Positions 8,018 through 32,000 of a stretch of 32,000 nucleotides of DNA are shown in pieces. The DNA comes from Prochlorococcus sp. MIT 0801. Its GTDB lineage: Bacteria; Cyanobacteriota; Cyanobacteriia; PCC-6307; Cyanobiaceae. The stretch covers positions 1,170,001-1,202,000 of the forward strand of contig NZ_CP007754.1 in the NCBI RefSeq assembly GCF_000757865.1, read 5' to 3'. The notes beneath the pieces are model-generated. The model was given only the letters and a program-made list of their open reading frames with translations. It ran no database searches and was not told the DNA's origin. Every line of letters begins with the position of its first letter. Positions within the stretch are counted from its first letter, which is position 1. The position numbers were made by a program, and so were the translations under genes.

Positions 8018-8061
8018 TGGTTTTGGAAATTCTTGTACTATGAGTTCATATTTTTACTCTT

Positions 8062-10809: not shown

Positions 10810-10882
10810 ATATGATTGGCGACTCTTAATACAAACGCCTAACATATTGCGACCTAATATCTAATTATTAGCTAGTAAAAAC

Positions 10883-13796: not shown

Positions 13797-14030
13797 TGTA
13801 TTTTTTTGATATTTGCTAACTATCTCGGTAACTTCCTCACCATGAATCCAGCGAATTTCGCCAGAATCTACGTTGGCAATTTGAAAGAGTGAGGGTGCAT
13901 CAGTATCACGAGAGCCTCCAACAAAAGTAAGAACTTTTCCAATTTGGTCCTTTTCATAAAGAACAGCGTCACCGCATTTAACTTTTAAAAATAAAGGCTC
14001 TTCAACTAATTCTTCATCGCTATAGCCCAA
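13785..14030 (-). CDS. Hypothetical protein (81 aa) downstream of ligase-like gene 1
   Basis: ORF overlapping the end of the upstream ligase-like gene by 25 nt. No family recognised. Confidence 0.45.
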   Translation of the reverse strand: MGYSDEELVEEPLFLKVKCGDAVLYEKDQIGKVLTFVGGSRDTDAPSLFQIANVDSGEIRWIHGEEVTEIVSKYQKNTMLT

Positions 14031-14791: not shown

Positions 14792-14879
14792 TAAAAAAGA
14801 CAGGCTGGGAAACCTGTCTCTGACTGATCGGGGCGACAGGATTCGAACCTGCGACCTAGTGCTCCCAAAGCAATCGGTT
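14789..14879 (-). repeat. att repeat 1: 3' 44 nt of tRNA-Pro(UGG) (14828-14871) plus its terminator; not an intact tRNA
   Basis: The reverse complement reads GC-TTTGGGA-GCACT-AGGTC-GCAGG-TTCGAAT-CCTGT-CGCCCCG-A. This gives the anticodon loop with UGG, the variable loop, the T-arm, the 3' acceptor strand and discriminator A. The hairpin AGACAGG/CCTGTCT plus T6 follows. No 5' acceptor strand (CGGGGCG) or D-arm lies upstream. It is 88/91 identical to 24511-24601. Confidence 0.85.
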
Positions 14880-14991
14880 GTACACATGAGACTGGTATAA
14901 AGATCTAATCCCTGACTAAAAATATTCTAGCTATTGTAATGAGTTTGAGACTAACAATTGAAATGAATATCTATTTGTTTTAACTTGTATT

Positions 14992-15018
14992 TACTCAGGA
15001 GATCCCGCTGAGATCCCG
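14992..15018 (+). promoter_or_regulatory. Arm-type repeat, left arm of element 1 (just upstream of int1)
   Basis: TACTCAGGAGATCCCGCTGAGATCCCG contains a tandem GAGATCCC-gct-GAGATCCC. The same 27-mer, with 2 mismatches, recurs at 24472-24498 at the opposite end of the element. Confidence 0.55.
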
Positions 15019-15038
15019 CTTTAAAGACTTCATCCTTA

Positions 15039-16424
15039 ATGAAAGCTCGTTCAGAAGCACCAGATTGGGTTCAAAGCATGAGGATCTTTCTTAGGGGGGA
15101 GGTTGGAGCAAACTGGCAGGTCACAACAAAAGGCAGGAGAAGGGCTTGTTTAGGTGTCAGGTTTGACGATGGAACGAGAGTCTTTAAAAATCTCCCTGTC
15201 TTATGGGAGAGGGCACAGCAAGCGAAGATCCAAGAGCTTGTTCTTGAAGTACATGAATTAGTGGTCAAGAAAAAGATATGCGGACTAGACGAAGCTATTG
15301 ATCGAATCAACAAAGCCAATACAGAAGTTCCTAGTGCAGCAGACAGGGCAAATCCAATGCTTCTTCTTGCCGCATGGGAAAAATACGAACACTACAAGGT
15401 GAAACAAAAAGGGGATGTCACTCAAGCGAATTGGAATAAAGAATATGGAGGGAGACCAAATACAAAAATCAACCCTCCAAGGCCAAAGGACAAAGGGAAA
15501 ACATATTTAAGGTTTAAGCAAATAGTGAAAACGGCTACCAATGCTAATGAACTATTAATCCAAATTGGTGACTACGAAGATAAAAATAAAAAGCCCGAAC
15601 CTATTAAGCCTTTAGAAGCTGGAAGTCGTAGCAGGCAAATCAGAGTTCAACATGTTGCAGCTTTTTTAAGATGGGCAACTTCAAAAAAATCAGGTTATTT
15701 ACTAAATCCAGAGAATTGGTCTGCGCCACCAAGGAATGCAATCGATGATTACGTAGGAGTTAAGTCAGCCAAGAAAAAGAAAGAAACTTCTAGTCCAACA
15801 GTTGCGATTGAAGATGACGATCTTTTAGCGCTATTAGGCTCACTACCCATAGACATAGACAAAGAAGAGAAAAGGCATCGATTAAGAGATCGTGCAATGG
15901 AGTGGGACTTTGCTCTAAAGCTTGCAATTACTTATGGCCTACGTCCTGAGGAAGTACGACATGAGCATCTAACGATCAAAAAGAATGACAAGGAATATAT
16001 GTTCTGCACCTATTGCAAAAAGTCTGGGGGAGGTATTACCAGGCCTCGCAGACTATGGCCGATCCATCCCGAATGGGAGAAGAAATGGCATTTATTGGAA
16101 CGTATTAAAAAGAGAGATCCTTTACCAAGAATGAAAGCTGGTGCAGGTGATGCATTTAGGAATTACCTACGTTTTAATGAGGTCTGGAAAAAATTAAAAT
16201 CAGATGTAGGTGTTGTGCCCTACAGCTTTAGACATTCCTATAGCAAGCGGGCACATCAAATTTACAAATTAAGTGATACAGAAGTTGCAGCTTTTATGGG
16301 TCACAGTGTCCCTGTACATAACGCTCGCTATGCTCAGTGGAGCACCGAAACTATGCTAGAAAGATCAATGGAACGTGCTATAAAATTCAGGAACATCCTC
16401 GAGGGTTCGCAAGTGGTCAATTAA
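15039..16424 (+). CDS. int: Tyrosine recombinase / integrase 1
   Basis: 461 aa. The catalytic signature is GLRPEEV (Arg I), FRHSYSKRA (HxxR) and MGHSVPVHNARYAQW (His/Tyr nucleophile). It lies about 160 nt from the att repeat. Confidence 0.9.
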   Translation: MKARSEAPDWVQSMRIFLRGEVGANWQVTTKGRRRACLGVRFDDGTRVFKNLPVLWERAQQAKIQELVLEVHELVVKKKICGLDEAIDRINKANTEVPSAADRANPMLLLAAWEKYEHYKVKQKGDVTQANWNKEYGGRPNTKINPPRPKDKGKTYLRFKQIVKTATNANELLIQIGDYEDKNKKPEPIKPLEAGSRSRQIRVQHVAAFLRWATSKKSGYLLNPENWSAPPRNAIDDYVGVKSAKKKKETSSPTVAIEDDDLLALLGSLPIDIDKEEKRHRLRDRAMEWDFALKLAITYGLRPEEVRHEHLTIKKNDKEYMFCTYCKKSGGGITRPRRLWPIHPEWEKKWHLLERIKKRDPLPRMKAGAGDAFRNYLRFNEVWKKLKSDVGVVPYSFRHSYSKRAHQIYKLSDTEVAAFMGHSVPVHNARYAQWSTETMLERSMERAIKFRNILEGSQVVN

Positions 16425-16819
16425 TCTAAATCAACTCTTTTAACTGTTGGTTTTACTTCTAGTTGTCCTTGACTAAGTTTAAAAAGATTCGCATAGGAAA
16501 TAGATTCTTCATCTCCAATTGATTTAATTTGTTCAATTGTTCTAAGAAGTTTTTCTTTAAATTCTTCAGCTTCAGATTTACTACTACAAATACGAAAGAT
16601 GTCATTATGGATTAAAACTCCCCATTGTTTTTTTATTGTTGTATGTGCATCTGCAGGGTCTTTCCGATAAGGAACAAGTCTCCCATTGATTTTCCAATTA
16701 CCTTCCTGAGAGTCTTCAATGATCAGTGATTCAATATTAGAGTTATATGAAGTAATAACTTTGTCCGCATGATCCGACCAATACCTTCGAGAATAGATAG
16801 GAGTAACTTGAATAGTCAT
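16421..16819 (-). CDS. Hypothetical protein (132 aa), convergent with int1
   Basis: Clean ORF whose 3' end overlaps the int1 stop by 4 nt. No family recognised. Confidence 0.45.
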   Translation of the reverse strand: MTIQVTPIYSRRYWSDHADKVITSYNSNIESLIIEDSQEGNWKINGRLVPYRKDPADAHTTIKKQWGVLIHNDIFRICSSKSEAEEFKEKLLRTIEQIKSIGDEESISYANLFKLSQGQLEVKPTVKRVDLD

Positions 16820-17150
16820 GTCTTTAATCCTTTTATTAGTTATTTTTGAGGTTAGAGAAAAAGACTTCCAACAAACATTAATTATTTAACAATTCACATT
16901 TCAAAAATCATAGTTTGATCGATTGAGACATAGCTACTTCTTTCTCATGCACAATCTAACTAAAAATAATTTGTAGATAATAGGTTGCACTTTTCTATAG
17001 ATGTGGATACTCTCCCACTAATAGAGAAGGCACGTTTTTGAGCTAAATCGGACAAAGCTTTTAGTTGCAACGCTAACTAAGACACCGAACTCAAATAGCA
17101 GAGCTAGCGGAAAGCCCTCACCAAATAATAATCTTTACCACTAATGAATA

Positions 17151-17375
17151 ATGTCCACGTCCCAATGGGTATCGACTTCTAATGCTGCAAAGGCCTTAGG
17201 ACTTAATCCTGTAACTCTTCTCCGAAAAAGAGTACAGCTAGAAAAAGATGGTTTCTTAAAACCCAACATCCATTACATAAGAACAGGGCAAACGAAGAAT
17301 TGCTCTTATTTATGGAAATTAGATGCACTTGAGGAATTACTCAGCAAATGGAAAGCTCCTAAGAGGTCCATCTAA
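17151..17375 (+). CDS. Small HTH DNA-binding protein (excisionase/AlpA-like)
   Basis: 74 aa. WVSTSNAAKALGLNPVTLLRKRV is a helix-turn-helix of the MerR/excisionase type. Its stop overlaps the next ATG (TAATG at 17373-17377). Confidence 0.6.
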   Translation: MSTSQWVSTSNAAKALGLNPVTLLRKRVQLEKDGFLKPNIHYIRTGQTKNCSYLWKLDALEELLSKWKAPKRSI

Positions 17376-19225
17376 TGAAAAATACATCTATCAATAAAGC
17401 ACCAACACAAGCGAAGTCGGACGACTTTACAAAAGAGTGGTCCAACAAAAGAGAATGTACTTTTAGTCATTTCAAGCAGTGGTGTAGAGAAGCCGAATAC
17501 TTAGTGCTATCAAACTATGAAGATCTAGATGCATTTAAAGGTGAAGAGATTCTTGAACCCATAAGTATTGAAAAACTATTCGAAAATGACTTCGAACCAC
17601 CAAGAGTTGGATCAGCCTATAAAAAATATTGTCGACTTGAATCTCAATATTATTTATTTGATTTAGACCACCCTGACTATCTAGGAAATTATTGGAATCT
17701 AATTGGTTTACTTTGGGGAGCACTACAAACTCATCAAGACCCTTATTTTCATAAGTGGAATTATCGAATGAAGTGCAATATCCAAGAAGCAAAGGCGTCT
17801 GGGGAAGATTATTCCATTTACGAAAGGATGATTCATCTAAACGACGTCGCAGAAATTGAGCCTATTGAAGAATTTGAAGCGCGCTTACTTCTAATAAAAA
17901 TGAAAGCTGGTGTGGTTTATAGACTTATTGAGGGAAAAGACAAGCCAGATATAGAGGATTATTTAACACCCATGGAACATATCAAGTGGCTCAAAACAAA
18001 TCACGTTCCACTAAATCCACCCTCAATAACAACAAAAACAGAAGACTCTTTAACGATCTTAGAGAAAGGTTGGAATGAGATAAAACTACTCCCTAGACCT
18101 AGTCAAAGGCGTTTAGGACTAAAGCAGCTACAAAAAGAGTTGAAGATGAATCCCAAAGAGCTCAGCTCTCTTATTTATGAATTGCAAGTGGAGAAGTCAT
18201 CTAAGAATCAAAAACTAAACAACTTCAATGCTGTCATGTCAGGTGAGTTCAACCAGAAGACACTTGTAGATAATTTCATCATGAGCGGGACAGTATCCAT
18301 GCTTGCAGGGGACGGGGGCTCAGGTAAAACCTCGTTGCTCTATCAAACAGCAGAGTCAGTTACGACAGGTAAGCCATTATTTGGAAGACTCACTACTAAG
18401 AAAAGAAAATGTCTATTAATCCAAGGTGATGAGAGTCACGTTAATGCACAAACAAAATGGAAAAGGATGAACTTGCAACCCGATCCAGCTCAATGGGAAT
18501 TGTGTTGGAAATGGACTGCAAGCCAACTTCCAGACCTAAGACAGTGGATTGATAACAATGGTTTTGGCCTTGTCCAAATGGATTCTTTTGGAGTTTTATT
18601 TGGTGGTAATGAGGCTATGAATGATGCTGAAATTGGACTCTACATGTATGAACTAAACAGTATTGCCGCGGATACTGGAGCAGCAATTGTGGTAAATCAT
18701 CATCTAAAAAAAAGGACACATAAGAATACTAAGGAGGCAGCGAAATGGAAACCATCTTTAGGAGACTTCTTTGGTTCGTCATACATCGTTAATGGAATTA
18801 GAGATGCTTGGGGTTTATGGAAAAAAGGAGAACATCTTGATGGATCGCCCATCTATGGATTGAAGTATCTCAAAGATAATTCTGGATTAATAGAAAATGG
18901 CTTTGTTATGAACCTACTAGGATCTGAAGAATCCTATAGATACTCTCTATTTGGTGACGAGGGTGGAGTTAAAGAGCTCGACGTTCGTAACACTATTCGT
19001 AGTCAACTTCATTCAGGACTTAAATCAAAAGCAGGGGAATGGCTACCATTTACAACTCTAAAAACCTTTACGCCTAAAGCAGATGACAGATCAATAAAAA
19101 GAGAATTAGCAAATTTATTTACTCATGCTGCTGCTACAGGTATAGAACGTAGACCAATTGAATCAGGACACGTTGGACGTCCCAAGTATGAATACCGTTT
19201 TGCAATATGCGGGGTGTGTGATTAA
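17375..19225 (+). CDS. Replication protein: about 300-aa N-terminal domain of unknown type plus a RepA/DnaB-like RecA-fold P-loop ATPase (AAA_25-like)
   Basis: Walker A MLAGDGGSGKTSLLYQ is present. LLIQGDES and Walker B-like GLVQMDSF follow, then VVNHHLKK. This arrangement is typical of plasmid RepA / AAA_25 helicases. The gene is translationally coupled to the HTH gene. Confidence 0.7.
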   Translation: MKNTSINKAPTQAKSDDFTKEWSNKRECTFSHFKQWCREAEYLVLSNYEDLDAFKGEEILEPISIEKLFENDFEPPRVGSAYKKYCRLESQYYLFDLDHPDYLGNYWNLIGLLWGALQTHQDPYFHKWNYRMKCNIQEAKASGEDYSIYERMIHLNDVAEIEPIEEFEARLLLIKMKAGVVYRLIEGKDKPDIEDYLTPMEHIKWLKTNHVPLNPPSITTKTEDSLTILEKGWNEIKLLPRPSQRRLGLKQLQKELKMNPKELSSLIYELQVEKSSKNQKLNNFNAVMSGEFNQKTLVDNFIMSGTVSMLAGDGGSGKTSLLYQTAESVTTGKPLFGRLTTKKRKCLLIQGDESHVNAQTKWKRMNLQPDPAQWELCWKWTASQLPDLRQWIDNNGFGLVQMDSFGVLFGGNEAMNDAEIGLYMYELNSIAADTGAAIVVNHHLKKRTHKNTKEAAKWKPSLGDFFGSSYIVNGIRDAWGLWKKGEHLDGSPIYGLKYLKDNSGLIENGFVMNLLGSEESYRYSLFGDEGGVKELDVRNTIRSQLHSGLKSKAGEWLPFTTLKTFTPKADDRSIKRELANLFTHAAATGIERRPIESGHVGRPKYEYRFAICGVCD

Positions 19226-19422
19226 TGTCATAAATTAAAAATGTCATCCCCAAATACGTTCCAGTGCAATAGAAGAGAAAGATACAATAATAATAAATGA
19301 CAAAAAACTAACACCCCACAAGTGCTTGCTGGTTCGTACAAATTAAAAGTGTAGACACATAAATTAAATGATTTTTTCTAACTTAAAAACCCTAAAATAA
19401 CTACAGAAAAATTTCTAGCACT

Positions 19423-19581
19423 GTGAGATTCGAAAGAGAACTGGAACGTCTACGTCAACGGGTACAACAGATATCGATTGAACAAGCACCACCGACTCTT
19501 CGTATGGTGATGATTAAAGATGAAATAATTCCAATAGATCTAACCGTATGGGATTTACCCATAACAGTGGAGAGTAAATAA
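19423..19581 (+). CDS. Possible 52-aa ORF abutting the next gene (below the ORF-track cutoff)
   Basis: GTG start. The translation is RFERELERLRQRVQQISIEQAPPTLRMVMIKDEIIPIDLTVWDLPITVESK*. The stop is immediately followed by the ATG at 19582. Confidence 0.25.
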   Translation: MRFERELERLRQRVQQISIEQAPPTLRMVMIKDEIIPIDLTVWDLPITVESK

Positions 19582-20028
19582 ATGACTTTGACTGATTTCG
19601 AACCAAGAAGAAAAGGAAGACCTTCTATAGAAGAGATACCTCTGCCTCCTCACGTACAAAGAGCACTTGTTCTCAGAGGCAATGGATCGTCATGGAAAGA
19701 TGCTGCTGAATCAGTAGGGATGGATTATCGAACACTCAGGAAATACGTCAGAGATCATCCTGATGCAAATGAGTTCCTGGAACGTCAAACACAAGACGCT
19801 TTAGATCAAAGCCATAGCAAACTCATTGCTGCAGCACCTGCAGCGGCACAAAGATTAATCGATGTAATTAATGACGAGGGCAATAGAGGTTATGTAGTTG
19901 TTCAAGCTGTTGAGAGTTTATTTAGGATTATTGATCGAGGTATTACAGATCGAGAGAACGCTGAGCAACTCAAAGAGATTAGAAACTCTATAAATGCTCT
20001 TGAAGGTGGAAAGATAATTAATGTCTGA
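19582..20028 (+). CDS. HTH-domain protein resembling a phage small-terminase subunit or regulator
   Basis: 148 aa. RKGRPSIEE...GSSWKDAAESVGMDYRTLRKYVRDHPDANEFLERQ is followed by a helical coiled region. This layout is common in TerS proteins. The functional call is tentative. Confidence 0.4.
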   Translation: MTLTDFEPRRKGRPSIEEIPLPPHVQRALVLRGNGSSWKDAAESVGMDYRTLRKYVRDHPDANEFLERQTQDALDQSHSKLIAAAPAAAQRLIDVINDEGNRGYVVVQAVESLFRIIDRGITDRENAEQLKEIRNSINALEGGKIINV

Positions 20029-20063
20029 ATGGCCTAGATAAGCTAGAAAGGTAGAAAGAAGTA

Positions 20064-21293
20064 ATGATGTTTATGCAACTAAGGCTATTACTCTTTCTTT
20101 CTCTTCTACCCTCAATATTCTTCATAGAAGCTAAGTCCTTTGGAGTATTAAGTGATAACTGCAATGCGAACAAATACACACCAGCTGAATTATTTAAATC
20201 GAAAGTAAATTCCGTCGTTGTTATCACCTCTGAAGGAAGTCAAGGGAGTGGATTTGTAGTTGAAAGACGCAAAGGTCATTCTTATATACTTACCAATGCT
20301 CATGTTGTCGGTAATAAAAAACGAGTAGACGTTAAATGGAATGATGGAGAAGTTGATCGAGCAGAAGTAGTTGGGAACTTGGGGGGGGATAAACTTGAGA
20401 GAGATCTTGCATTAATTAAAGTCGCTGGAACGAAAGGAACACCAATAAAACTTAGTAAAAATTCGCCAGAAGTTGGTTCTGATGTCGTCGTGATTGGAGC
20501 ACCTAGTGGTCTCGAATTTAGTCTGACAAGAGGTGTTGTTAGTCAAATTAGAGATCGAGAGAATTTTGTCCAAATTGATGCCCCTGTAAATCCTGGCAAC
20601 AGCGGTGGTCCTGTATTTAATAATGGTGGATGTGCGATTGGTGTTGTTACCTTCAAATCTGGTGAAGGGACAGAGGGACTCAACTTTGCTATCGGGAATA
20701 AGCAAATAACAAAGTTTTTAAAAAATCCAATTATTGATGAAGAGGCAATTAATAAACAAACACTTGCGAATCTCCCATTACCACCAAAATCAATTGAAGG
20801 ACCATTCCCGCCTTTTGAATTTGAATATGGAGAAACTTACAGTCAAATACAAGTTAACAAAGGGAATAAAGAATGGACTACTCTCACTGTAACAACTGAA
20901 TTGTCACCTAATAGAGAGCCAAAAACAAATCGATTAATGATAGAAAATAAATCCATCAGAAAAGATGAAGACTGGTTTTCTGTAAAAGCTATAAGAAACG
21001 CCCTATCAACCTTTGCCGAGGTCACCGTTCAAAAAACAGGTCAAAAAGTTTATCTCTCTGGTTCCTACCCTTTTGAAAGAAAAATCAATTGCAAAGATCA
21101 AATAGTTCAGCATGGTCCAACAACTTATAAAGGGAGAACAACGGGACCAACTAACTATTACAAAGTTGGTCCAGGCTGGTTTATGACAAAGTACGAGATC
21201 AAAAAAGGCAAATTAGTTGATCTGCCCGGGAACAGCAAAGAAGTCGATCAAATGGAAAACGCTGCTTTGTTTAATTATTTTTGCAAAGGCTAA
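20064..21293 (+). CDS. Secreted trypsin-like (S1C/HtrA-type) serine protease with a non-PDZ C-terminal domain of unknown function
   Basis: A signal peptide is present. The catalytic triad context is TNAHVV (His), RDLALIKV (Asp) and GNSGGPVF (Ser). The last about 190 aa contains no recognisable PDZ domain. Confidence 0.85.
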   Translation: MMFMQLRLLLFLSLLPSIFFIEAKSFGVLSDNCNANKYTPAELFKSKVNSVVVITSEGSQGSGFVVERRKGHSYILTNAHVVGNKKRVDVKWNDGEVDRAEVVGNLGGDKLERDLALIKVAGTKGTPIKLSKNSPEVGSDVVVIGAPSGLEFSLTRGVVSQIRDRENFVQIDAPVNPGNSGGPVFNNGGCAIGVVTFKSGEGTEGLNFAIGNKQITKFLKNPIIDEEAINKQTLANLPLPPKSIEGPFPPFEFEYGETYSQIQVNKGNKEWTTLTVTTELSPNREPKTNRLMIENKSIRKDEDWFSVKAIRNALSTFAEVTVQKTGQKVYLSGSYPFERKINCKDQIVQHGPTTYKGRTTGPTNYYKVGPGWFMTKYEIKKGKLVDLPGNSKEVDQMENAALFNYFCKG

Positions 21294-21344
21294 AAACCAA
21301 AATATTCACAAAGGACACATACCACAATCCTTCAAAAACTTCAC

Positions 21345-21470
21345 ATGAAATCTCAGGAATTATCTGCTGAAGAACAAGCTCTCTGGAATGAGGTTGAAGA
21401 AAGAATTGATCGTAATTTGAAAAAAGAATTATTTGAGAGGCTTAAAGAGTATGGTTTGAAAATTGAATAA
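21345..21470 (+). CDS. Possible 41-aa helical peptide (below the ORF-track cutoff)
   Basis: Manual translation gives MKSQELSAEEQALWNEVEERIDRNLKKELFERLKEYGLKIE*. Confidence 0.2.
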   Translation: MKSQELSAEEQALWNEVEERIDRNLKKELFERLKEYGLKIE

Positions 21471-21550
21471 GTTTTTATGTGATATTTGTTTTAACTAGAT
21501 CAGCTAGAAAGGTATAGAGATCTATATTCCTCATACAGAAAGAGTCCTAA

Positions 21551-22753
21551 ATGAAGCCAGACTTACGAATCACTGATCCTGATGATTTCGAGAAAGTCGT
21601 AGCAAGACAATGTATGACTTTGGGCTACGAAGTCGTAATGCCAACAAAAAACAATCCCGGATACGACATTGAATTAATTAAAGGGAAAGAAAGAATCGCT
21701 GTACAAGTTAAATGTCATAAAGCAAAGCAAAACACAGGTCAATACAAAAAGTTTGTTGCTTTTTTAGAACTTCCAATAGCTTCAAATTTCACTAGTGGAT
21801 GGTTTATCTCGCAAAGTGGATATAGCAAAAATGTTTTAGCTCTTGCTGAAGCAGATCGAGAGCCAAATCTAAAGCTAGGAACTTCCTCACAAAGAGGAAT
21901 CAAATGGAATTATGACCCTGATTTAGCCCCAGGAGAAAGCCCTGAAGAAGAGAAAGAAGAGGATATAGAGGAAAAGAATGTAAAAGATGAAGCAGTCAAA
22001 TATTTTGGAATTTTCACTTGTAAAGGAGGTGTTGGGAAAACGACTGTTGCAGCTCATCTGGCTGGTGCATTCGCAATAATGGGTTATGACGTAATCCTGC
22101 TAGATCTTGATCCTGACAGGAATTTGAGGAAATTGTTTCTTCAAGATCAGGACTCTGATGAAGATGCTTCTTTGTATATCCCCCCCAATAAAAAAGGTTT
22201 TTCAGGAGCAACAATCACTGTCTTAAATGCCGACGAATGGGATGAAAGGTCATATTCCGAAAAAGTCGTTATTTGTGATTGCTCTCCTGTCCTTTCCGAA
22301 AATCCTAAGTATCTAATAAGAAAATTTGATTATTGCGTAATACCCACAACCCTTAATCCTCTTGGTATCGCAAAGAATGGCGATGTGATCACAAGAACTT
22401 TCAAACATATTAGAAAAATGAATAACAAGGCTGAAATGTTTTGTTTGATCAACTCATATAGCGGAGCTCAATCATACGAAGAAAGAAATAAACATCTATT
22501 AGCCTTGGTTGAAAAGCCAATCAAGGAATATCAAAAGAACGATCCAAAATGTCAACTTATACATCCTGATTATGTGAAGATTAGAGAAAGTAGAGCTCTT
22601 CGATATTGGGGGTATCACCTTGTCGATGGATCTCCACCTCAATTAGCTTTCAAATCTGTTGCTAATAGAAGTGCTCCAAGAACTGACTTCATGCAATTAG
22701 CAGAATATTTAGAGGATCACACCTCAATCACTTCAACAAGAGAACTTGATTAA
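21551..22753 (+). CDS. Fusion protein: N-terminal Mrr-like PD-(D/E)xK nuclease domain plus C-terminal ParA/MinD-type deviant Walker A ATPase
   Basis: The N-terminal sequence ...GYDIELIKGKERIAVQVKCHK gives a D...E-x-K core as in Mrr_cat. An acidic linker follows (PEEEKEEDIEEKNVKDE). Then GIFTCKGGVGKTTVAAHLAGAFAIMGYDVILLDLDPD gives the KGGxGKT deviant Walker A and Walker A' region. Confidence 0.75.
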   Translation: MKPDLRITDPDDFEKVVARQCMTLGYEVVMPTKNNPGYDIELIKGKERIAVQVKCHKAKQNTGQYKKFVAFLELPIASNFTSGWFISQSGYSKNVLALAEADREPNLKLGTSSQRGIKWNYDPDLAPGESPEEEKEEDIEEKNVKDEAVKYFGIFTCKGGVGKTTVAAHLAGAFAIMGYDVILLDLDPDRNLRKLFLQDQDSDEDASLYIPPNKKGFSGATITVLNADEWDERSYSEKVVICDCSPVLSENPKYLIRKFDYCVIPTTLNPLGIAKNGDVITRTFKHIRKMNNKAEMFCLINSYSGAQSYEERNKHLLALVEKPIKEYQKNDPKCQLIHPDYVKIRESRALRYWGYHLVDGSPPQLAFKSVANRSAPRTDFMQLAEYLEDHTSITSTRELD

Positions 22754-22809
22754 GGGTTAATGAGAAAAGAATTTCTCTTACCAGTCGACCTAACTGCAAG
22801 GAACTATTA

Positions 22810-23013
22810 ATGCAAAAAATGCTAATCACAGTAGGACTACTGATCGCATCAATAGGTGTTCTATATCCTTACTTAAAACGAATAGGGTTAGGACGATTGC
22901 CTGGGGACATCATTATTCGAAGTGAAAACTCATCTTTTTATTTTCCAGTAGTTAGCTGTATTGCCATCAGCCTGCTTCTTTCAGTCATTTTTAATTTATT
23001 TCGATCCTCCTAA
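22810..23013 (+). CDS. DUF2905-like small membrane protein
   Basis: 67 aa with two TM helices flanking GLGRLPGDIIIRSEN, the characteristic (K/R)LPGDI motif. Confidence 0.55.
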   Translation: MQKMLITVGLLIASIGVLYPYLKRIGLGRLPGDIIIRSENSSFYFPVVSCIAISLLLSVIFNLFRSS

Positions 23014-23201
23014 TGAGTTTCGCTGATAACTGGGCCAGGGTTTTTGTTGTGATTACTTTTCTAACTTTTGGAGAAGCTCAGATCATTGGTGGCATCGTTC
23101 CGAACCTTATTGCTTTTAGCTTGTTTCTTGGAGCAATTGGATACTTTGCTTTAACTGGAAAAATGGCTGAGATGTTTGGTATTAAAAAACGGCCCAAATA
23201 A
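23013..23201 (+). CDS. Small two-TM membrane protein (62 aa)
   Basis: The start overlaps the previous stop (TAATG). The protein is hydrophobic with a basic C-terminus. Confidence 0.4.
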   Translation: MSFADNWARVFVVITFLTFGEAQIIGGIVPNLIAFSLFLGAIGYFALTGKMAEMFGIKKRPK

Positions 23202-23263
23202 GATTATTCCTCCACCGTTTGACCGCCGATTGCTATCGAAAACGCAGGAATGAAATGACTCAG

Positions 23264-23416
23264 TCAATCCTTATTATCAAATTCTTCTTCTTTCTGGATT
23301 TTAATTTCAACTCTCATATTCATTCCTAAAAAAACAATGATGACTCCTATTACCGGAAGCCAAAGGCCAAATTGTTTTGATTCAGCTGCTGCTTGATTAA
23401 AAATATCAGGAGTCAT
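23264..23416 (-). CDS. Possible 50-aa single-TM peptide (below the ORF-track cutoff)
   Basis: Manual translation gives MTPDIFNQAAAESKQFGLWLPVIGVIIVFLGMNMRVEIKIQKEEEFDNKD*. Its ATG overlaps the stop of the upstream small ORF (TAATG). Confidence 0.3.
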   Translation of the reverse strand: MTPDIFNQAAAESKQFGLWLPVIGVIIVFLGMNMRVEIKIQKEEEFDNKD

Positions 23417-23574
23417 TATTGATTAACACTCCATTTATCTTGATAAGGAAGTTGGTAATCCTCTTTATTCATAGGAATCCAACTCCAATCAACGCAAATG
23501 GTTATTTGATAACCAATTACATATAAAGCAAGCATTGCATTGAATAAATTTATGTGTTGAACGGGAGCATCCAT
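23416..23574 (-). CDS. Possible 52-aa peptide (below the ORF-track cutoff)
   Basis: Manual translation gives MDAPVQHINLFNAMLALYVIGYQITICVDWSWIPMNKEDYQLPYQDKWSVNQ*. It is coupled to the ORF at 23264-23416. Confidence 0.3.
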   Translation of the reverse strand: MDAPVQHINLFNAMLALYVIGYQITICVDWSWIPMNKEDYQLPYQDKWSVNQ

Positions 23575-23758
23575 AATTATCACTAAAAAATTTCACTAAA
23601 TATTCTCACAGAAGATAAGAATGTAGTTGACGGAAAATACTACACAAATTCATCCGTCGGGAGGCCACCTCGAAAGTTACTTGATGTTAATTGGAAGACT
23701 TTTTGCATCTTTCATCTCGATTTTCGTTAAAAATCAAATTCAAATATATTTTTCTTCA

Positions 23759-24064
23759 ATGGCTCTTTTTAAACTTGACTGGGCATTTCCTACTCAGGAA
23801 TCATCATTTGCAGGAGGAGAAAAATTTCTTGAATATCTTGAAGCTGGTGGTCCAGCTGACGAAACTGAAGGTTTTAAAATTCTTTGGCGTGTAACCAACC
23901 CACTTAATGGAACAGGTAGCTTCGTCGCTGAAGCAACTGATATCAGCAAGATGTGGGAACACGCTGCTCCTTGGATCAAAGGGTTTGGATGTATGTGCGA
24001 AGTAGAGGCTGTGTTCTCAGACGAGCAATTTGTTACTACTGCGAAAAAAATCTACGCATCTTAA
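23759..24064 (+). CDS. Hypothetical soluble protein (101 aa from ATG 23759)
   Basis: The tracked ORF starts at TTG 23627. The ATG at 23759 (MALFKLDWAFP...) is the more plausible start. It is followed by a strong terminator. Confidence 0.5.
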   Translation: MALFKLDWAFPTQESSFAGGEKFLEYLEAGGPADETEGFKILWRVTNPLNGTGSFVAEATDISKMWEHAAPWIKGFGCMCEVEAVFSDEQFVTTAKKIYAS

Positions 24065-24109
24065 ATAATTGACTTATCTATAGTTGAAATCATTTTTGGA
24101 TGAATACTC

Positions 24110-24136
24110 AGGACTGACTTAGCTCAGTCCTTTTTT
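24110..24136 (+). terminator. Rho-independent terminator
   Basis: AGGACTGA (24110-24117) / TCAGTCCT (24124-24131) form an 8-bp perfect stem with a 6-nt loop, followed by a T-run. Confidence 0.75.
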
Positions 24137-24137
24137 A

Positions 24138-24275
24138 TTAGTTGGCCATCATATAAAAAAGGAATCCTGCAAGAATAGTTAGCTTTGCACCAATGCCGTA
24201 TGCAATTATTTTTCCAAATTTTGATCCTCTGGAATAATCAGACCAATGATTATCAGCCTTATTACTTGAAGTCAT
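24138..24275 (-). CDS. Possible 45-aa membrane peptide (below the ORF-track cutoff)
   Basis: Manual translation gives MTSSNKADNHWSDYSRGSKFGKIIAYGIGAKLTILAGFLFYMMAN*. Confidence 0.3.
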   Translation of the reverse strand: MTSSNKADNHWSDYSRGSKFGKIIAYGIGAKLTILAGFLFYMMAN

Positions 24276-24471
24276 TTCTAATTAGAGAAAAGGTTTAGCG
24301 AGAAAAGGAAGTTGCTATGCAGTACACCTTCCTTAACTCTCATTGGATCAATGCTCACTGATAACCAATGTTCAAGGAACATAACTAGAAATTCATTATT
24401 CCTCTAGGCCGGTTGAGGTAGGGCTAACCAACACAGAGAGGTCAAAACCATTGCCACTAAAGACAAGTAAC

Positions 24472-24498
24472 TACTCGGGAGATCCCGCTGAGATCCCA
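24472..24498 (+). promoter_or_regulatory. Arm-type repeat, right arm of element 1
   Basis: TACTCGGGAGATCCCGCTGAGATCCCA matches 14992-15018 at 25/27 positions. It runs directly into the terminal inverted repeat CCAGTCTCAT (24496-24505). Confidence 0.55.
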
Positions 24499-24510
24499 GT
24501 CTCATTTTTG

Positions 24511-24601
24511 CATTAAAAAAGACAGGCTGGGGAACCTGTCTCTGACTGATCGGGGCGACAGGATTCGAACCTGCGACCTAGTGCTCCCAAAGCGATAGGT
24601 T
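24511..24601 (-). repeat. att repeat 2: 3' 44 nt of tRNA-Pro(UGG) (24550-24593) plus its terminator; not an intact tRNA
   Basis: 88/91 identical to 14789-14879 in the same orientation. The sequence to its right (the tRNA 5' side) has no D-arm or CGGGGCG acceptor strand. Confidence 0.85.
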
Positions 24602-24606
24602 TGATT

Positions 24607-24714
24607 AAGCTATAACTTGTCTTTAAAGCTATAACTCTAATTATATCTACAGTTTCTTTCTAATACTTTCTAATACTTTCTAAAATATGGTTGCTTTTTC
24701 CCAAGTTTTTCCCA
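24607..24714 (+). promoter_or_regulatory. Cluster of short direct repeats between att repeat 2 and int2 (candidate arm-type sites/promoter)
   Basis: AAGCTATAACT occurs twice (24607-24617, 24626-24636). CTTTCTAATA occurs as 2.6 tandem units (24656-24685). TTTTTCCCA occurs twice (24695-24703, 24706-24714). None of these resemble the GAGATCCC repeats of element 1. Confidence 0.4.
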
Positions 24715-24747
24715 ATAATATACCTAGTGCCTACAACGTTTTGATAA

Positions 24748-26885: not shown

Positions 26886-29108
26886 ATGACTCTGAGTGGT
26901 GTTACTGCATCTGGAAGCAAATATACAGTCTCAGTTATCAATCGACCTGCAAATTTAAACGTAAGCGAATCCCTTTTAGCCCTAAATGGTGAAGCTGCAA
27001 TTAAATATATTGGAGAATATCTCAAATGGCAGGGAACACTAGATATTGGTATTGAATTTGATATCAACAATACAGTTAAGAATTGGGAGGAAACTGGCAA
27101 TGCATATGCCTGTCATGGAGGACATGTATTCGATAGTAAATCAGGAGAATACAGGACAGCTGCATATGTTGAAGCAACAACTGGTATAGATACAACAGCT
27201 AGTAATGGAAGGGAAATAGATGCGGGAACATGGATTTCAAGTTGGGTAACTGATGTTCTTTGGAAAGGATATGGAGATGAAACAGCATACATAGTTGATG
27301 ACTATAGTTACTCTCTTGATGCAGTCGAGGAAAATCCAACAATATCTAATTCAGGAGAAATGAATTTCTTCGCCGTGATGGTTCATGAAATTTTTCATGG
27401 CTTAGGATTCTGGGCAATAAATAACCCTACCTTCTCTCCCTTTGATTTCGACATTATTGGTGACAATGGCTATGTCACTGGAACCAATATCAATAAGGTA
27501 TTAGGCACTTCAATGCCTTGGAACCTGACCCAAGCACATCATGCATTAGGAGATTCAAAACATAATCTTATGTATGAAAGAAAATCGGGAGCGAAGTATC
27601 AAATAACAAATTTAGACCTAGCTGTTCTTGCAGACTATGGATGGGAAATCTACAAATGGGCTGAAAAATTTGTCAGATTATCTGCAAATAATAATGTCGT
27701 TTCAACTGGAGCCGATGAAGGCGAATCAATCACCATAAATATAGACACTGATCATATTGTTGGTGGGGCTACATATAATTATTCAATTTCTGGTATTTCA
27801 GATTCAGATTTAAGTTCTGGCTCAACAAATGGATCGGTCACAGTTGATTCAGATGGAGATACAACTATAACTTTTGGCTTAAAATCTGATGCACTCACTG
27901 AAGGAATAGAAAATTTAATTTTTTCTATTGATGAAGAAAGTATAACCATTCCAATCAATGACACCTCTTTAACTAATCAAACTCCATCTAATATCAGCCT
28001 CTCATCTTCTTCCTTTAATGAGCATATTGCTGCAGCTTCTACGGTCGCAACTCTCTCAACGACGGATGCTGATTCATCCGATACGCATACCTACTCCTTA
28101 GTAACTGGCTCAGGTGATACCGATAATGATTCATTCACCATTGATGGTTCATCTTTAAAAATCAAAGCTTCTCCTGATTACGAGACAAAATCTTCCTACA
28201 ACATTCGCTTACAAACAACTGATAGTAGTGGTGAAACCTACGCCAAAACATTCACGCTTTCTGTTAATGATATCGATGAATTCACCGCAACCATTTCAGG
28301 AACATCCAGCACTGATAGTTTACAAAGTACGAGTGGTAACGATTCAATCGATGGGCTAGGTGGTACAGATACAGTTACTTATACCGCCAGCTTCTCCAAC
28401 TATTCCTTTACCCGTGGCACAGACACCCTACAAATAGCCGATCAACGTACGACAGGTACAACCGATGGAACCGATACTCTTAAAAATATTGAATACATTC
28501 AATTTACTGATCAAACAGTAGAAGAATCAAAAGTAGACGTAGTTAAAACCTATAGCGGTAATTTTAGCGATTATAAGTTCTACAACAAAGGTAATGGTAA
28601 ATATGAGATCAAAACTGATTCTGGCTATGACGATATCACTGGCTATCCTCTACTAACATTTACAGGAGAAGCAACAACTAGCTCCTTCCGTGATGTAAGT
28701 GCCATTGTTGATATCAAAGGGACATTTGACCAAGTCACTGGTTTAGACACAGACGATGCAAAGATGTTCCGTTTATATAACGCTTCTTTCAAACGCCTTC
28801 CAGATCCTGATGGGTTGAAGTATTGGATTGGTAAATATAGTTCTGGAGAGAATGATTCAAGAGCAGTTGCATCTTCTTTCTTAGTTTCTGCAGAATTTAA
28901 GGAGCGATACGGAGAGAACGTTTCTAATGCAAAGTATGTTGAGACTCTTTATACAAATGTCCTTGGTAGGGACTATGACCAAGATGGTTATAACTATTGG
29001 CTAGGTAATTTAAATGCAGGTACTGAAACAAGATATGAACTCCTTTTAGGCTTTGCAGAAGCAGCAGAAAACAAAGCACTCTTTACTGAGATGACTGGTT
29101 TTGGTTGA
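26886..29108 (+). CDS. Large multidomain extracellular-type protein: HExxH metalloprotease-like region, Calx-beta-like, cadherin-like and C-terminal DUF4214 domains
   Basis: [13 protein letters not shown] gives an HExxHxxG motif. [13 protein letters not shown]...[22 protein letters not shown] is Calx-beta-like. [18 protein letters not shown]...[36 protein letters not shown]...LSVNDIDE is a cadherin repeat. The C-terminal YWIGKY...AEFKERYG...[22 protein letters not shown] is DUF4214. No N-terminal signal peptide is present, and an in-frame stop lies 36 nt upstream of the ATG. Confidence 0.8.
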
Positions 29109-29120
29109 GACGTGTATTTT

Positions 29121-29354
29121 TTAAAGCACGTTATAAACTCTTCTTTGAATATTTCTTCTAATTTTTTGTTCTAAAGGTATACATCCTTGAGGTTGGAGTT
29201 GGAAGAATACTCTTCCTGAAATTGACTCGACTACATAATCATCAAGTTTACCCTTATTTAACAATCTATAGAGGGTTTTAGTAGATTTATATCCTAATAA
29301 TCGTGCTGTCTGGGAGATAGTGAAAACTTCGAAGGTTCTTGTTTGTTGTTTCAT
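29121..29354 (-). CDS. Small HTH DNA-binding protein (excisionase/regulator-like)
   Basis: 77 aa. FTISQTARLLGYKSTKTLYRLLNKGKL is a helix-turn-helix. Confidence 0.55.
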   Translation of the reverse strand: MKQQTRTFEVFTISQTARLLGYKSTKTLYRLLNKGKLDDYVVESISGRVFFQLQPQGCIPLEQKIRRNIQRRVYNVL

Positions 29355-29536
29355 CTTACGTTTTTTACATTTGCGTAAACAGTAGTTAATGCTATACTTC
29401 TCGGCTTTTCTGTTAAAGATCCGTGTAAAACCGTGTCCATATTTAGTGGCCTGTGCTTACTGGAATTTTGGGCCCCGAAAGTAACCTCATCAAAACGGCC
29501 AGAGAAGATCCATCACACCATATATAGACAATAATA

Positions 29537-29572
29537 AGGGGGGGGAGAAACACTCCTGAAACTCCCCCCAAT
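29537..29572 (-). terminator. G/C-homopolymer hairpin downstream of the capsid gene
   Basis: GGGGGGAG (29539-29546) / CTCCCCCC (29561-29568) with a 14-nt loop in AT-rich flanks. No clean T-tract follows, so terminator function is uncertain. Confidence 0.4.
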
Positions 29573-29592
29573 TTATTATTTAGTAATAAGAA

Positions 29593-31194
29593 TTAGGTAG
29601 CAATGGCGTCAACCATTGCAGCAAATGATTGAGGGTGCCTAACAGCTATATCGATTGATTGTAAGGCTCTAATACCTGTTGTTCCTTTTGCAAAGTCTGT
29701 ATATGGATCAACAAGAATTTCTAAGTTACCCCACATTCCAATCATTAAGTCTGCAAAGTTTCCATAAATAATTGCACTTAAATTTGATCCAGTGCCTTTA
29801 GATAAGTTGCTTGGAACATTGTTGCTAACAACTAAACGTCTACCGCTGATCCTTGAATCACCTAAAGATGCACCATAAGGATTTAATAGATAATTACTTT
29901 GATCGTCTTTAAGTTGTGATAGTGCTGCTTCAACTTTGGTATTAGTTAAATAGCCAGCCGTTGAGACATCAGCGTTATCAATAGAGATTTCTTTTTTTAG
30001 CTCAAGTAAATGATCAATTGTTGGTGCAAGACCATTTGTTCCACCTGCAACGCTACCTATTCCACTTGTGTTGAGAATTCCTCTAGGTTGATTAGATGAT
30101 CCTGTTCCTGTAATAGCAGCTAAATCAATTGCCTCTGCAATAACAGCTAGGAAATCACTTCTTACTAAACCCTCTATCTCTGGTGTTGCCTGTAGATCCA
30201 TTAAATGACTGAATTTGCTATATGCACCAATGGTTTTGGGTGTCATTGCAATACTGCCTAAAGCTCCAGTTGACTCAGTAATTGAGTCAGAATTGTCTGC
30301 ACCAATCCAATAGGCACTGGCTGATCCACTACGAGTAGGAATATCGACATTGCCCACTAATGATGGAAGCATTGTTGCTCCAAGTTCAGCTACAGCAAGG
30401 CTGTTTCTGAGACTATCTACAAATCGATCTGCAAGATGTTCAGTCGCAATCAGATTGCCACCAGAAGCAGCAGTGCCAGCCACATAAGCCCTTGTAGACC
30501 AACCGTTAGAAGGGACGAAGAAGCCTTGAGTTCTTTTGCCATTAACTCTTTCAAGTTCTGTATTTATTTCTAACTCTCTTCCAGATAAACCTCTGCCAGA
30601 TGCGATACCTTTTGCAGCTTGAATAATAGAGAAATTATCTGATTCTCTTGCAAACTCATCTGGAATAGATGTGTTGATTGGTTCGTAGTTTGAAACTGGA
30701 GTTGTTGTCATTTGATTAGCAGGAATTGATGTGGAACGATTAACGCCAATAGATGGATCAGCAGGGATTGAAACGATGCTCAACTCAACTGGTTGCCATG
30801 AAATAGCTCTTGTTATTTCTTCGTCTTGCTCTACTTGATTGACTTGATATCCAACAGAAATATTTTCCAGAATATTATTTTCAACATCTTTTCTAATCTC
30901 TAATGCTCTTGGATTAGTCGCCCATTTAATAGTGGCTTTGCCTCTCTTGTCTTCGATCCAAGCTTTGGTGACTTTGCCCAAAACTTGGTTGGGATCATGG
31001 TTGAACAATAGTGGAGCTGCACCTGTATTTAGACGAGTTAAATCAACAGATTCCTCATCATGGTCGAGTACTTCCTCTCCAAAATATCTTTCTACTGGTT
31101 GCTCACTACTAAATGAAAAAGTGAGATTATCCCGTTCTGTTTGAGCATCCATGGGAAGAAATCTCCTTTTGATTTCAACGGTTTTTGTAGTCAT
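29593..31194 (-). CDS. Fusion of HK97-family prohead serine protease (S78) and HK97-fold major capsid protein
   Basis: The N-terminal about 150 aa reads FSFSSEQPVERYFGEEVLDH...LLFNHD...LGKV...ISVGY...ELSIVSIPADP, the S78 His/Ser context. The C-terminal about 330 aa reads GGNLIATEHLADRFVDSLRNSLAVAELGATMLP...AYWIGADN...KFSHLMDLQATPEIEGLV...ILVDPYT, which is Phage_capsid (HK97) family-like. Confidence 0.85.
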   Translation of the reverse strand: MTTKTVEIKRRFLPMDAQTERDNLTFSFSSEQPVERYFGEEVLDHDEESVDLTRLNTGAAPLLFNHDPNQVLGKVTKAWIEDKRGKATIKWATNPRALEIRKDVENNILENISVGYQVNQVEQDEEITRAISWQPVELSIVSIPADPSIGVNRSTSIPANQMTTTPVSNYEPINTSIPDEFARESDNFSIIQAAKGIASGRGLSGRELEINTELERVNGKRTQGFFVPSNGWSTRAYVAGTAASGGNLIATEHLADRFVDSLRNSLAVAELGATMLPSLVGNVDIPTRSGSASAYWIGADNSDSITESTGALGSIAMTPKTIGAYSKFSHLMDLQATPEIEGLVRSDFLAVIAEAIDLAAITGTGSSNQPRGILNTSGIGSVAGGTNGLAPTIDHLLELKKEISIDNADVSTAGYLTNTKVEAALSQLKDDQSNYLLNPYGASLGDSRISGRRLVVSNNVPSNLSKGTGSNLSAIIYGNFADLMIGMWGNLEILVDPYTDFAKGTTGIRALQSIDIAVRHPQSFAAMVDAIAT

Positions 31195-31309
31195 TCCTTT
31201 CCTCTTTTTGTAATTGCAGATAACGTCTTCTCATTGGTGAAGTAAGAGCATCATCTAGGACGTGTTTGCACACTCTTGGTGTGTCGTCATCAACTAAAAG
31301 CTGAGTCAT
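31175..31309 (-). CDS. Possible 44-aa ORF overlapping the capsid start (below the ORF-track cutoff)
   Basis: Manual translation gives MTQLLVDDDTPRVCKHVLDDALTSPMRRRYLQLQKEERNDYKNR*. It overlaps the capsid-fusion start by 20 nt in another frame. Confidence 0.2.
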   Translation of the reverse strand: MTQLLVDDDTPRVCKHVLDDALTSPMRRRYLQLQKEERNDYKNR

Positions 31310-31631
31310 AAAATATTGCGAATAATATATTTTATCTGTAAAAACTATTGGTATAGCTGTTGTTTTGGTGGGTAAATGAAATTAAAAACTAAATAGTATT
31401 ATATGCCAACTAATAACTCTTAATTAATGTTAAAACGACTAAAAATGTCTTAAAACAGCTTAAATACATATTTCAATTTCGATACATAATTAATGCTGTC
31501 TCGGTGCCTCAGGTGTCTCGGCATTTTCTATACCTTTCCCAGTATTGTTATCTATCTATAAATTACTACCTTCAACTTTATTATCTGAGACACTGAGGCG
31601 GAAGGGCTAAAGCCCAACCACCAGAACAGGT

Positions 31632-32000
31632 TTACCCCGCCTCGGAAGAAGCCAAATCTACTGAGGCTTCTGAGGCAGACTTTCTCCATAGTCTTGGTTG
31701 CTTGACTCCATTAATTCGTTTTTGATTTTTATCTTGGACGAAACCTAATTCTCTTAGAGCGTTACCAGCTTCCTTACAATCGTGAGCTGTTATACGACCA
31801 CGATCTCTGCAACCACTTAAGTGGAGAGCTGTTTCTGCAGAGAATCCATCTGATCCTTGCTTATTTACCCACTCATACAAGCTTGAATAAAAAGGATGCT
31901 CAGCTTCAAAGTCACTATTATTCAACTCTGATTGAGCATGTTCTTCAGGAGACAGATAACACTTGTAGCCATTTAGATAAGCGAGGTGAGCAGCTTTCCA
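31632..32000 (-). CDS. Partial CDS (C-terminal about 122 aa; N-terminus beyond the window): C-terminus of a VirE/P4-type primase-helicase-like protein
   Basis: The frame stays open upstream of the tracked TTG (31925) to nt 32000 (WKAAHLAYLNGYKCYLSPEEHAQSELNNSDF...). The tail ...ITAHDCKEAGNALRELGFVQDKNQKRINGVKQPRLWRK resembles the winged-helix-like C-terminal segment found at the end of phage/plasmid primase-helicases. The call is tentative. Confidence 0.45.
   Translation of the reverse strand, partial: WKAAHLAYLNGYKCYLSPEEHAQSELNNSDFEAEHPFYSSLYEWVNKQGSDGFSAETALHLSGCRDRGRITAHDCKEAGNALRELGFVQDKNQKRINGVKQPRLWRKSASEASVDLASSEAG

Follow-up and report, generated by a model that had tools for sequence, protein, structure and literature searches.

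We examined 32,000 nucleotides (nt) of Prochlorococcus sp. MIT 0801, a low-light-adapted clade I (LLI) isolate with a 1.93-Mb genome (contig NZ_CP007754.1, positions 1,170,001 to 1,202,000; this whole stretch is called the window, and positions given below are window positions). Nine proteins encoded in the window match proteins of this strain exactly. At its right-hand end lies an integrative element, here element B, in which plus-strand genes for an integrase, a ligase-like protein and a 740-amino-acid (aa) accessory protein converge on a minus-strand block encoding a helicase, a 44-aa open reading frame (ORF), a 533-aa protein and a small helix-turn-helix (HTH) protein (Table 1). Element B carries a single morphogenetic gene, whose product combines a prohead protease, a helical linker and an HK97-fold capsid domain in one chain. 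Gene content was taken from a six-frame ORF list, and domains from profile matches to Pfam, PHROG and NCBIfam; the four minus-strand genes that a first-pass annotation of the bare sequence had reported, among them the 44-aa ORF and the partial helicase, are all in the ORF list where it had placed them. The element is seen directly up to the window edge at 32000 and its remaining ~1.9 kb was read from near-identical contigs, while exact-protein look-ups with the capsid protein, the 44-aa ORF, the HTH protein, the integrase and the 740-aa protein returned matching contigs of at most 4.8 kb.

Table 1. Positions of the features of element B (upper rows) and of neighbouring features in the window (lower rows); att, attachment site; sRNA, small RNA
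Feature	Position	Strand	Description or basis
Left att of element B	24506..24601	-	96-nt repeat: last 44 nt of tRNA-Pro(TGG) plus the hairpin downstream of the tRNA
Att-integrase spacer with phased short direct repeats	24602..24747	+	AAGCTATAACT ×2, CTTTCTAA ×3 (10-nt spacing), TTTTTCCCAA ×2
Tyrosine recombinase (integrase), 405 aa, AIQ97590.1	24748..25965	+	Pfam, PHROG
NAD-dependent DNA ligase adenylation-domain-only protein, 254 aa, AIQ97591.1	25962..26726	+	DNA_ligase_aden 3.3e-23; NCBIfam
740-aa accessory gene	26886..29108	+	HEIFH motif, cadherin-like domain, RTX repeat, C-terminal DUF4214
77-aa HTH_17 (excisionase/AlpA-type) DNA-binding protein	29121..29354	-	Pfam, PHROG, synteny
G/C-rich hairpin	29540..29569	-	8-bp stem GGGGGGAG/CTCCCCCC, 14-nt loop; inverted-repeat scan; just past the capsid stop
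Prohead protease::HK97-fold major capsid fusion, 533 aa, AIQ97594.1	29593..31194	-	Protease ~8-141, linker ~180-232, capsid ~245-533
Conserved 44-aa ORF	31175..31309	-	20-nt overlap with the start of the capsid gene
AT-rich intergenic region, helicase to 44-aa ORF	31310..31631	-	TGTCTCGG ×2 at 31497 and 31514
VapE/SF3-type helicase	31632..32000	-	C-terminal 122 codons of 434 aa; gene runs past the window edge
Element A tyrosine recombinase, 461 aa	15039-16424
Element A trypsin-like protease	20064-21293		Protease domain similar to those in the PADLOC models RT-Protease_XI and LmuA
Element A Mrr_cat::ParA-ATPase fusion	21551-22753
Cyano-1 sRNA	10336-10400	+	Rfam RF01701, 64.7 bits vs gathering score 41

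The description of the 533-aa protein as a fusion of an S78 prohead protease to an HK97-type capsid is borne out by the profile searches, which found both domains. Phage_capsid (PF05065) matches residues 245-528 over its whole length (3e-47, profile positions 1-279/280) and Peptidase_S78 matches residues 48-152 (4.2e-09); the protein also matches phrog_617 'major head protein' (3.5e-111), phrog_4523 'major head and protease protein' (2.3e-40) and, in NCBIfam, both major_cap_HK97 and the 'prohead protease/major capsid protein fusion protein' entry. Residues H66, S113 and E137 are invariant in 62/62 homologues, the first two being the counterparts of H65 and S114 in HK97 gp4, which we take to be catalytic there. 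The gene is intact and under purifying selection: the ratio of nonsynonymous to synonymous substitution rates (dN/dS) is 0.08-0.23 in comparisons with four relatives wherever synonymous sites are unsaturated, and this holds for the protease and the capsid parts alike. A comparison with the gene for the 81%-identical protein on contig L041 (730-2334) gives a mosaic of synonymous divergence (protease 0.68, linker 0.065, capsid 0.38), which points to recent recombination between satellite capsid genes.

The AlphaFold model of the fusion protein (predicted local distance difference test score, pLDDT, 75.5) folds residues 8-141 into a beta-rich protease domain, leaves 145-178 disordered, forms three helices over 180-232 and, behind a disordered N-arm (234-256), an HK97 fold (257-533); in this model the helical segment would be a linker or scaffold-like. 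The best Foldseek matches of the model are the capsids of roseophage R4C, RcGTA (in second place), HK97 and others, including that of the capsid-forming phage-inducible chromosomal island (cf-PICI) EcCI2. When the solved R4C capsid chain (8gta_A) is aligned, its first residue falls on residue 245 here, from which we suggest that the N-terminal ~244 residues are lost on maturation, the likely cleavage site lying near residue 244/245; this would leave a mature protein of 289 residues. Full-length homologues of the fusion at 33-37% identity are annotated as major capsid proteins of bona fide phages, and joining protease to capsid is thus an ordinary phage invention.

The remaining genes of element B supply what looks like a recombination and replication apparatus. 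The integrase gene starts ~150 bp from the att, at a place where relatives have either a tyrosine or a large serine recombinase; its product matches Phage_integrase slightly under the Pfam cut-off (5.9e-06) and phrog_1 integrase clearly (2e-15), shares 27% full-length identity with the integrase of the viral contig L002 and 25% with that of the neighbouring element A, and had no close match in a scan of viral contigs. The ligase-like gene overlaps the integrase stop by 4 nt and is thus translationally coupled to it. This recombinase-then-ligase pair recurs in L041, L049 and L058, and the second gene corresponds to the 'lig' hallmark of tycheposons, the Prochlorococcus elements described by Hackl et al. 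(cited from the preprint, bioRxiv 10.1101/2020.12.28.424599; journal version in Cell, doi 10.1016/j.cell.2022.12.006).

At the other end of element B, the helicase gene is completed by a near-identical Tara contig (L045), whose 434-aa product matches VapE-like_dom (PF05272) at 2.2e-61 and is presumably the replication module; scans with this protein found one 1.6-kb metagenome contig and no close match among viral contigs. The 44-aa ORF that follows is a genuine gene: it is called on 5 independent contigs, and its motif DDxPxR...D.L.S...RRYL recurs upstream of the capsid gene in MIT 9302, MIT 1307, L041 and L042 despite diverged DNA. The 77-aa protein falls below the Pfam cut-off for HTH_17 (22.3 vs 27 bits) and matches phrog_66 weakly; its homologues are the immediate downstream neighbours of the capsid gene in L041, L049, L058 and L002 and have the motif LGYKS..TLYRLL in common, and the L058 homologue has a precomputed HTH_17 match.

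Between the ligase-like and HTH genes lies a variable slot, filled here by the 740-aa gene, in MIT 9302 by a glyoxalase gene and in L041 by 198- and 108-aa ORFs, and empty in L058. The HEIFH motif of the 740-aa protein is zinc-protease-like and the protein has no obvious signal peptide; from its domains it looks secreted or surface-located, and it may be a type-I-secreted surface protein. PADLOC returned no defence-system match for any element B gene.

Three non-coding features may have regulatory roles. The phased repeats between att and integrase, among which AAGCTATAACT occurs twice against 0.03 matches expected by chance, are candidates for arm-type sites bound by a recombinase or regulator. 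The hairpin behind the capsid gene is probably a transcription terminator or attenuator; a simple terminator scan found no consensus terminator, and this hairpin did not pass it. The AT-rich region between helicase and 44-aa ORF could hold a promoter, an origin or a packaging signal.

The left boundary of element B is set by the 96-nt repeat, which has two copies in the window (14784-14879 and 24506-24601) that are 95% identical where none is expected by chance, the first of them bounding element A. In the left att of element B the tRNA-Pro(TGG) 3' remnant comprises 44 nt (24551-24594, minus strand); the att core spans the anticodon loop to the acceptor end and is identical over 44-45 nt to the 3' portion of the complete MIT 1307 tRNA-Pro(tgg) (L050). 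These remnants confirm tRNA-Pro as the attachment site, as had been surmised, and ARAGORN and Rfam find no complete tRNA in the window. Because the tRNA match is on the minus strand and covers the 3' part, the elements would stack to the left of the intact gene, each behind a partial copy, and this order makes 14880-24505 element A and everything from 24602 onwards a second element, B. A Logan contig with an identical capsid protein continues rightwards through the genes for VapE (434 aa) and for proteins of 116 and 69 aa, plus a further 472 bp, and stops at window-equivalent position ~33973; another contig, L048, begins at position 24564, within the att repeat. Since assemblies tend to break at repeated att sites, we place the right end near 33.9 kb, and element B probably runs from 24602 to ~33.9 kb, ~9.3 kb in total.

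Close relatives of the capsid fusion (53-81% identity) come almost solely from marine metagenomes and from Prochlorococcus (MIT 1307, MIT 9302 and single-cell genomes), and they share a layout. The single-cell contig L058 has small genes, an AAA_25 helicase, the major capsid protein (MCP) gene and HTH_17, with lig and a tyrosine recombinase on the opposite strand. In MIT 9302 (L049), 60-, 115- and 194-aa genes are followed by a helicase, the 44-aa ORF, MCP, HTH, the glyoxalase gene, and lig with a large serine recombinase. The 8.7-kb contig L041, with the 81%-identical capsid protein, carries MCP, HTH, two small ORFs, lig and a large serine recombinase, and additionally encodes a D5/DUF5906 primase-helicase. 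Two further contigs join helicase and MCP to a primase and a tyrosine recombinase (L055, 8.4 kb) or to a large serine recombinase, HTH and a ParB-like protein (L054, 9.5 kb), and the IMG/VR contig L002, with integrase, helicase and MCP, is a closed circle of 8626 bp (99-bp terminal overlap). Common to the relatives is a core of MCP and HTH, with the 44-aa ORF in most members, around which different recombinase and helicase modules are exchanged; the elements group at sizes of 8-9.6 kb.

Two of these contigs show features of their own. L058 has three tRNA-Pro 3' copies (927-948, 6205-6226 and 19041-19062), and 4.4 kb with genes for TPR, M48-peptidase and zinc-ribbon proteins separate its MCP satellite from the att copy that follows, a stretch that could be either cargo or a fused remnant. 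In L049 (12269-15689), the large serine recombinase and lig lie between two glyoxalase-family genes (129 aa and 118 aa), and judging from this arrangement satellites of the serine-recombinase version may have a glyoxalase gene as their target or bring a replacement copy of it along.

Because this layout recurs in the relatives, we take the integrase and the capsid block to be parts of one element. The first-pass annotation had placed the capsid block in one element with an integrase and a non-phage gene, which agrees with the recurrent synteny and with the absence of any att copy between the integrase at 24748 and the capsid block. As an alternative it had considered a third element with att and integrase beyond 32000; this is excluded by the gap of only 12 bp between the convergent 740-aa and HTH genes, by the lack of an att there and by the synteny of integrase-lig with HTH-MCP-helicase in L058, L049 and L041.

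The ORF list, Pfam and PHROG give no portal, terminase, tail or lysis gene between 24.6 and 32 kb, an extension of what had been noted for the last 3 kb, and neither the window nor the complete and near-complete relatives examined contain head-tail adaptors, connectors, TerS, TerL or HNH. Portal, adaptor and connector genes were found in none of L002, L041, L049, L054, L055 and L058, and in circular L002 every ORF of terminase size is already assigned. Genes of the terS or cpm/ppi redirection type had no Pfam or PHROG match in the window or the relatives, whose small ORFs are without an assigned family. A lone 'portal' PHROG match in L054 was rejected, as it covers the ParB-like domain.

Since the relatives lack portal, terminase, tail and lysis genes, we read element B as neither a prophage nor a cf-PICI. 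The proposal of a satellite-like integrative element in place of a prophage therefore stands, and the label 'cf-PICI-like' attached to it is dropped, given that portal, adaptors, TerS, TerL and HNH are missing. We consider it likely that 24602 to ~33.9 kb is one integrated 'PICI-like tycheposon' of the MCP type and, jointly with this, the second of the elements arrayed in tandem at the tRNA-Pro(TGG) island. We find in it a terminal recombinase, tRNA-Pro(TGG) repeats, a replication hallmark and a packaging hallmark, as in other tycheposons. According to Hackl et al. (bioRxiv 10.1101/2020.12.28.424599), tycheposons integrate at seven tRNA/tmRNA genes including Pro_tgg, and ~15% of them are 'PICI-like', with a terS or MCP packaging gene.

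We posit the following cycle. Upon infection by a helper cyanophage, the integrase and the HTH protein would excise element B, and the SF3 (superfamily 3) helicase would drive its replication. The polyprotein would assemble into procapsids of the element's own, probably small ones, with its protease trimming the N-terminal ~244 residues from the capsid chain, and the helper would provide portal, terminase, tail and lysis functions. In this way the element would spread and carry the accessory gene along, probably at the cost of part of the helper's burst. Signs of mobility are indirect: the circular relative L002 in IMG/VR, contigs that break at att, and the published occurrence of the class in viral-fraction metagenomes.

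The main alternative, though an unlikely one, is that the protein only interferes, co-assembling with helper head proteins or proteolysing them as an abortive defence, and that the element moves in vesicles or as concatemers in helper-sized heads. The absence of portal and terminase genes from the element would suit such a role, and the hallmark table of Hackl et al. (bioRxiv 10.1101/2020.12.28.424599) classes the gene under 'Packaging-Interference'; the same preprint reports tycheposons in vesicles besides capsids, and packaging of marine satellites often takes the form of concatemers inside helper heads of full size, with no capsid remodelling (PMC9618062). Strong purifying selection on the whole capsid domain and the protease residues among relatives 53-81% identical, however, suits a self-processing shell that assembles better than it suits a decoy. 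The clustering of sizes at 8-9.6 kb speaks in the same direction: by our own volume scaling from HK97 (T=7, where T is the triangulation number; 39.7 kb), a T=3 head would hold ~11 kb, and we speculate that an 8-9.6-kb element would suit a small T=3 or T=4 head.

We regard as highly improbable that the capsid gene is the decayed remnant of an HK97-like prophage beside an unrelated integrase. A lone capsid gene could be left over from prophage deletion, and Prochlorococcus islands are full of element debris, such as the orphan lig-like ORF at 14006-14887. Yet the same compact gene order, with recombinase and helicase modules swapped, recurs in many independent genomes and metagenomes, a circular 8.6-kb form exists, and no att copy separates integrase from capsid block; decay of the capsid domain, which would have made the block a remnant, is contradicted by the intact ORF and its dN/dS. 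There is equally little room for a genuine cf-PICI, or for a small but complete temperate phage, with portal, terminase and connector genes just past 32000. The window does stop within the element, ~1.9 kb short of its end, but the near-identical contig continues with the VapE, 116-aa and 69-aa genes and 472 bp to its end, syntenic relatives end there too (in L058 an att copy lies 520 bp upstream of the first small gene), and 9.3 kb cannot accommodate five further components (portal, two connectors, HNH and TerL). Least probable of all is a domesticated portal-less nanocompartment of the encapsulin kind or a gene-transfer-agent-like particle unrelated to phage parasitism: HK97-fold shells without portals do exist (encapsulins) and RcGTA is the second-best structural match, yet the gene always travels with recombinase and replication modules in mobile, strain-variable elements at att sites, it matches Phage_capsid (PF05065) and not the encapsulin families, and a cargo-loading partner and a GTA head-tail cluster are absent.

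Several points weigh against the satellite reading that we prefer. The right end of the MIT 0801 copy and the full tRNA-Pro fall beyond the window, and excision, helper dependence, capsid formation and packaging of element B are inferred only. A capsid shell without its own portal would be unusual, and portal compatibility may matter, as cf-PICIs carry theirs. We found no terS and no recognizable packaging signal. Prochlorococcus phages are absent from the best 30 cultured-phage matches of the fusion protein and from a 60-row spread sample, and identity to capsid proteins of cultured phages reaches no more than 38.5% among the matches listed. Capsid proteins of uncultured marine siphoviruses, at the IMG/VR loci L007, L009, L029 and L032, come to 47-50% identity. 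Finally, the 740-aa gene sits inside element B, against Hackl et al. (bioRxiv 10.1101/2020.12.28.424599), who state that they saw no PICI-like tycheposon carry cargo.

The position of the 740-aa gene within element B suggests that such satellites can carry cargo after all. Going further, and only tentatively, we propose a class of 'minimal capsid-forming satellites' intermediate between PICI and cf-PICI, in which one polyprotein gene (protease, scaffold-like linker and capsid) would be enough to build a small satellite-specific head on the portal of a lytic cyanophage. If this is true, such satellites would, against what has been published, also ferry accessory genes from one Prochlorococcus cell to another, in this case the gene for the 740-aa secreted or surface protein.

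To the left of element B, element A (14880-24505) occupies the space between the two tRNA-Pro att copies. Besides the genes in Table 1 it encodes a 616-aa AAA_25 helicase-like protein and a DUF3303 gene, and from this content it looks like a cargo or defence-type tycheposon. A 31-nt repeat (…GGAGATCCCGCTGAGATCCC, 90% identical) lies just within both of its ends (14987-15017 and 24467-24497); in the excised circle the two copies would flank attP on both sides, which makes them candidate arm-type integrase sites. The ligase-adenylation-like ORF at 14006-14887 (minus strand) abuts the first att copy and has no adjacent recombinase; together with a 152-nt direct repeat (10877-11028 and 13643-13794, 92% identical) it is probably debris of older elements in the island. 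The first 10,000 nt of the window (1-10000) hold phosphate and arsenate stress genes, namely a PstS-like binding protein, a chromate transporter, a major facilitator superfamily (MFS) transporter, a glyceraldehyde-3-phosphate dehydrogenase (GAPDH) homologue and an ACR3 arsenite pump, and are typical island content upstream of the element array.

Prochlorococcus, to our knowledge, is without plasmids, conjugation and, as a rule, prophages, and the known phages of this cyanobacterial host are lytic. Without those vehicles, how its genomic islands move is a real question, and satellites with a capsid gene are one proposed vehicle for island transfer. The MIT 0801 copy adds little to the published catalogue: the element class, the fusion hallmark and the genome set are already in Hackl et al. 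(bioRxiv 10.1101/2020.12.28.424599), whose genome table lists MIT0801, and the first-pass annotation overrated the novelty of the find. It is nevertheless a clean example from an isolate, an LLI strain that can be cultured, and is suited to the mechanistic question of whether one protease-capsid gene, with neither portal nor terminase, can redirect the assembly of a lytic cyanophage.

Among known systems, the fusion gene itself finds its counterparts in phages such as Pseudomonas phage Persinger, Escherichia phage vB_EcoM_ECOO78/ep3, the Roseobacter phages CRP-8xx and Synechococcus phage S-LBS1 (NCBIfam NF045541; phrog_4523), which have the same domain order over 95-98% coverage; these differ in being only 33-37% identical and in placing the gene in genomes of 30-44 kb, the size of complete phages. 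A temperate HK97-like prophage, with complete modules and a genome above ~30 kb, was rejected as a match for an element of ~9.3 kb whose relatives span 8-9.5 kb. Classical PICIs and Staphylococcus aureus pathogenicity islands (SaPIs) resemble element B in their size class, in integrating at specific sites, in having a replication module and in presumably depending on a helper, but they redirect packaging by TerS and remodel helper capsids by Cpm/Ppi, whereas element B has a complete capsid protein and no terS. Virion-encapsidated integrative mobile elements (VEIMEs; PMC9618062) and PICMIs (minimalist chromosomal islands that phages induce; PMC10803314) are likewise small marine integrative satellites with integrase, AlpA/excisionase and primase/helicase, whose helpers are probably virulent phages. 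The former are reported without major capsid genes and as packaged in concatemers in full-size heads (PMC9618062) and the latter lack capsid-remodelling genes (PMC10803314), whereas element B brings its own capsid gene.

The cf-PICIs, for example EcCIEDL933, come closer, with integrase, AlpA-type regulator, primase/helicase, an HK97-fold capsid protein of their own and a prohead protease (fused to it in Firmicutes cf-PICIs, as here), and with no tail or lysis/holin genes. As defined in SatelliteFinder, they carry portal, connectors, HNH, TerS and TerL besides capsid and protease (PMC10085698); element B lacks portal, adaptor/connector, HNH, TerS and TerL, contains at most ~6/11 core components, measures ~9 kb and resides in a cyanobacterial host. 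The closest likeness is to the PICI-like tycheposons of the same host genus, which share with element B insertion at tRNA-Pro(TGG), where tandem arrays with partial-tRNA repeats form, a recombinase of the tyrosine or large serine type, 'lig', an xis-type HTH protein, an SF3 (VirE/VapE) or DnaB/AAA_25-type helicase and the lack of other virion genes. Hackl et al. (bioRxiv 10.1101/2020.12.28.424599) name as tycheposon hallmarks YR/LSR (tyrosine or large serine recombinases), xis, lig and hel-VirE, and report tycheposons from viral-fraction metagenomes. Their hallmark table includes hel_IRVE-VirE and a profile MCP_IRVE-HK97, described by Phage_capsid, Peptidase_S78 and 'MCP + caudovirus serine prohead protease'; compared with that description, the domain architecture of the 533-aa protein is a match. 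The difference is one of contents: PICI-like tycheposons were described without cargo, whereas element B holds the 740-aa RTX/cadherin/DUF4214 gene and its counterpart in MIT 9302 a glyoxalase gene in the same slot.

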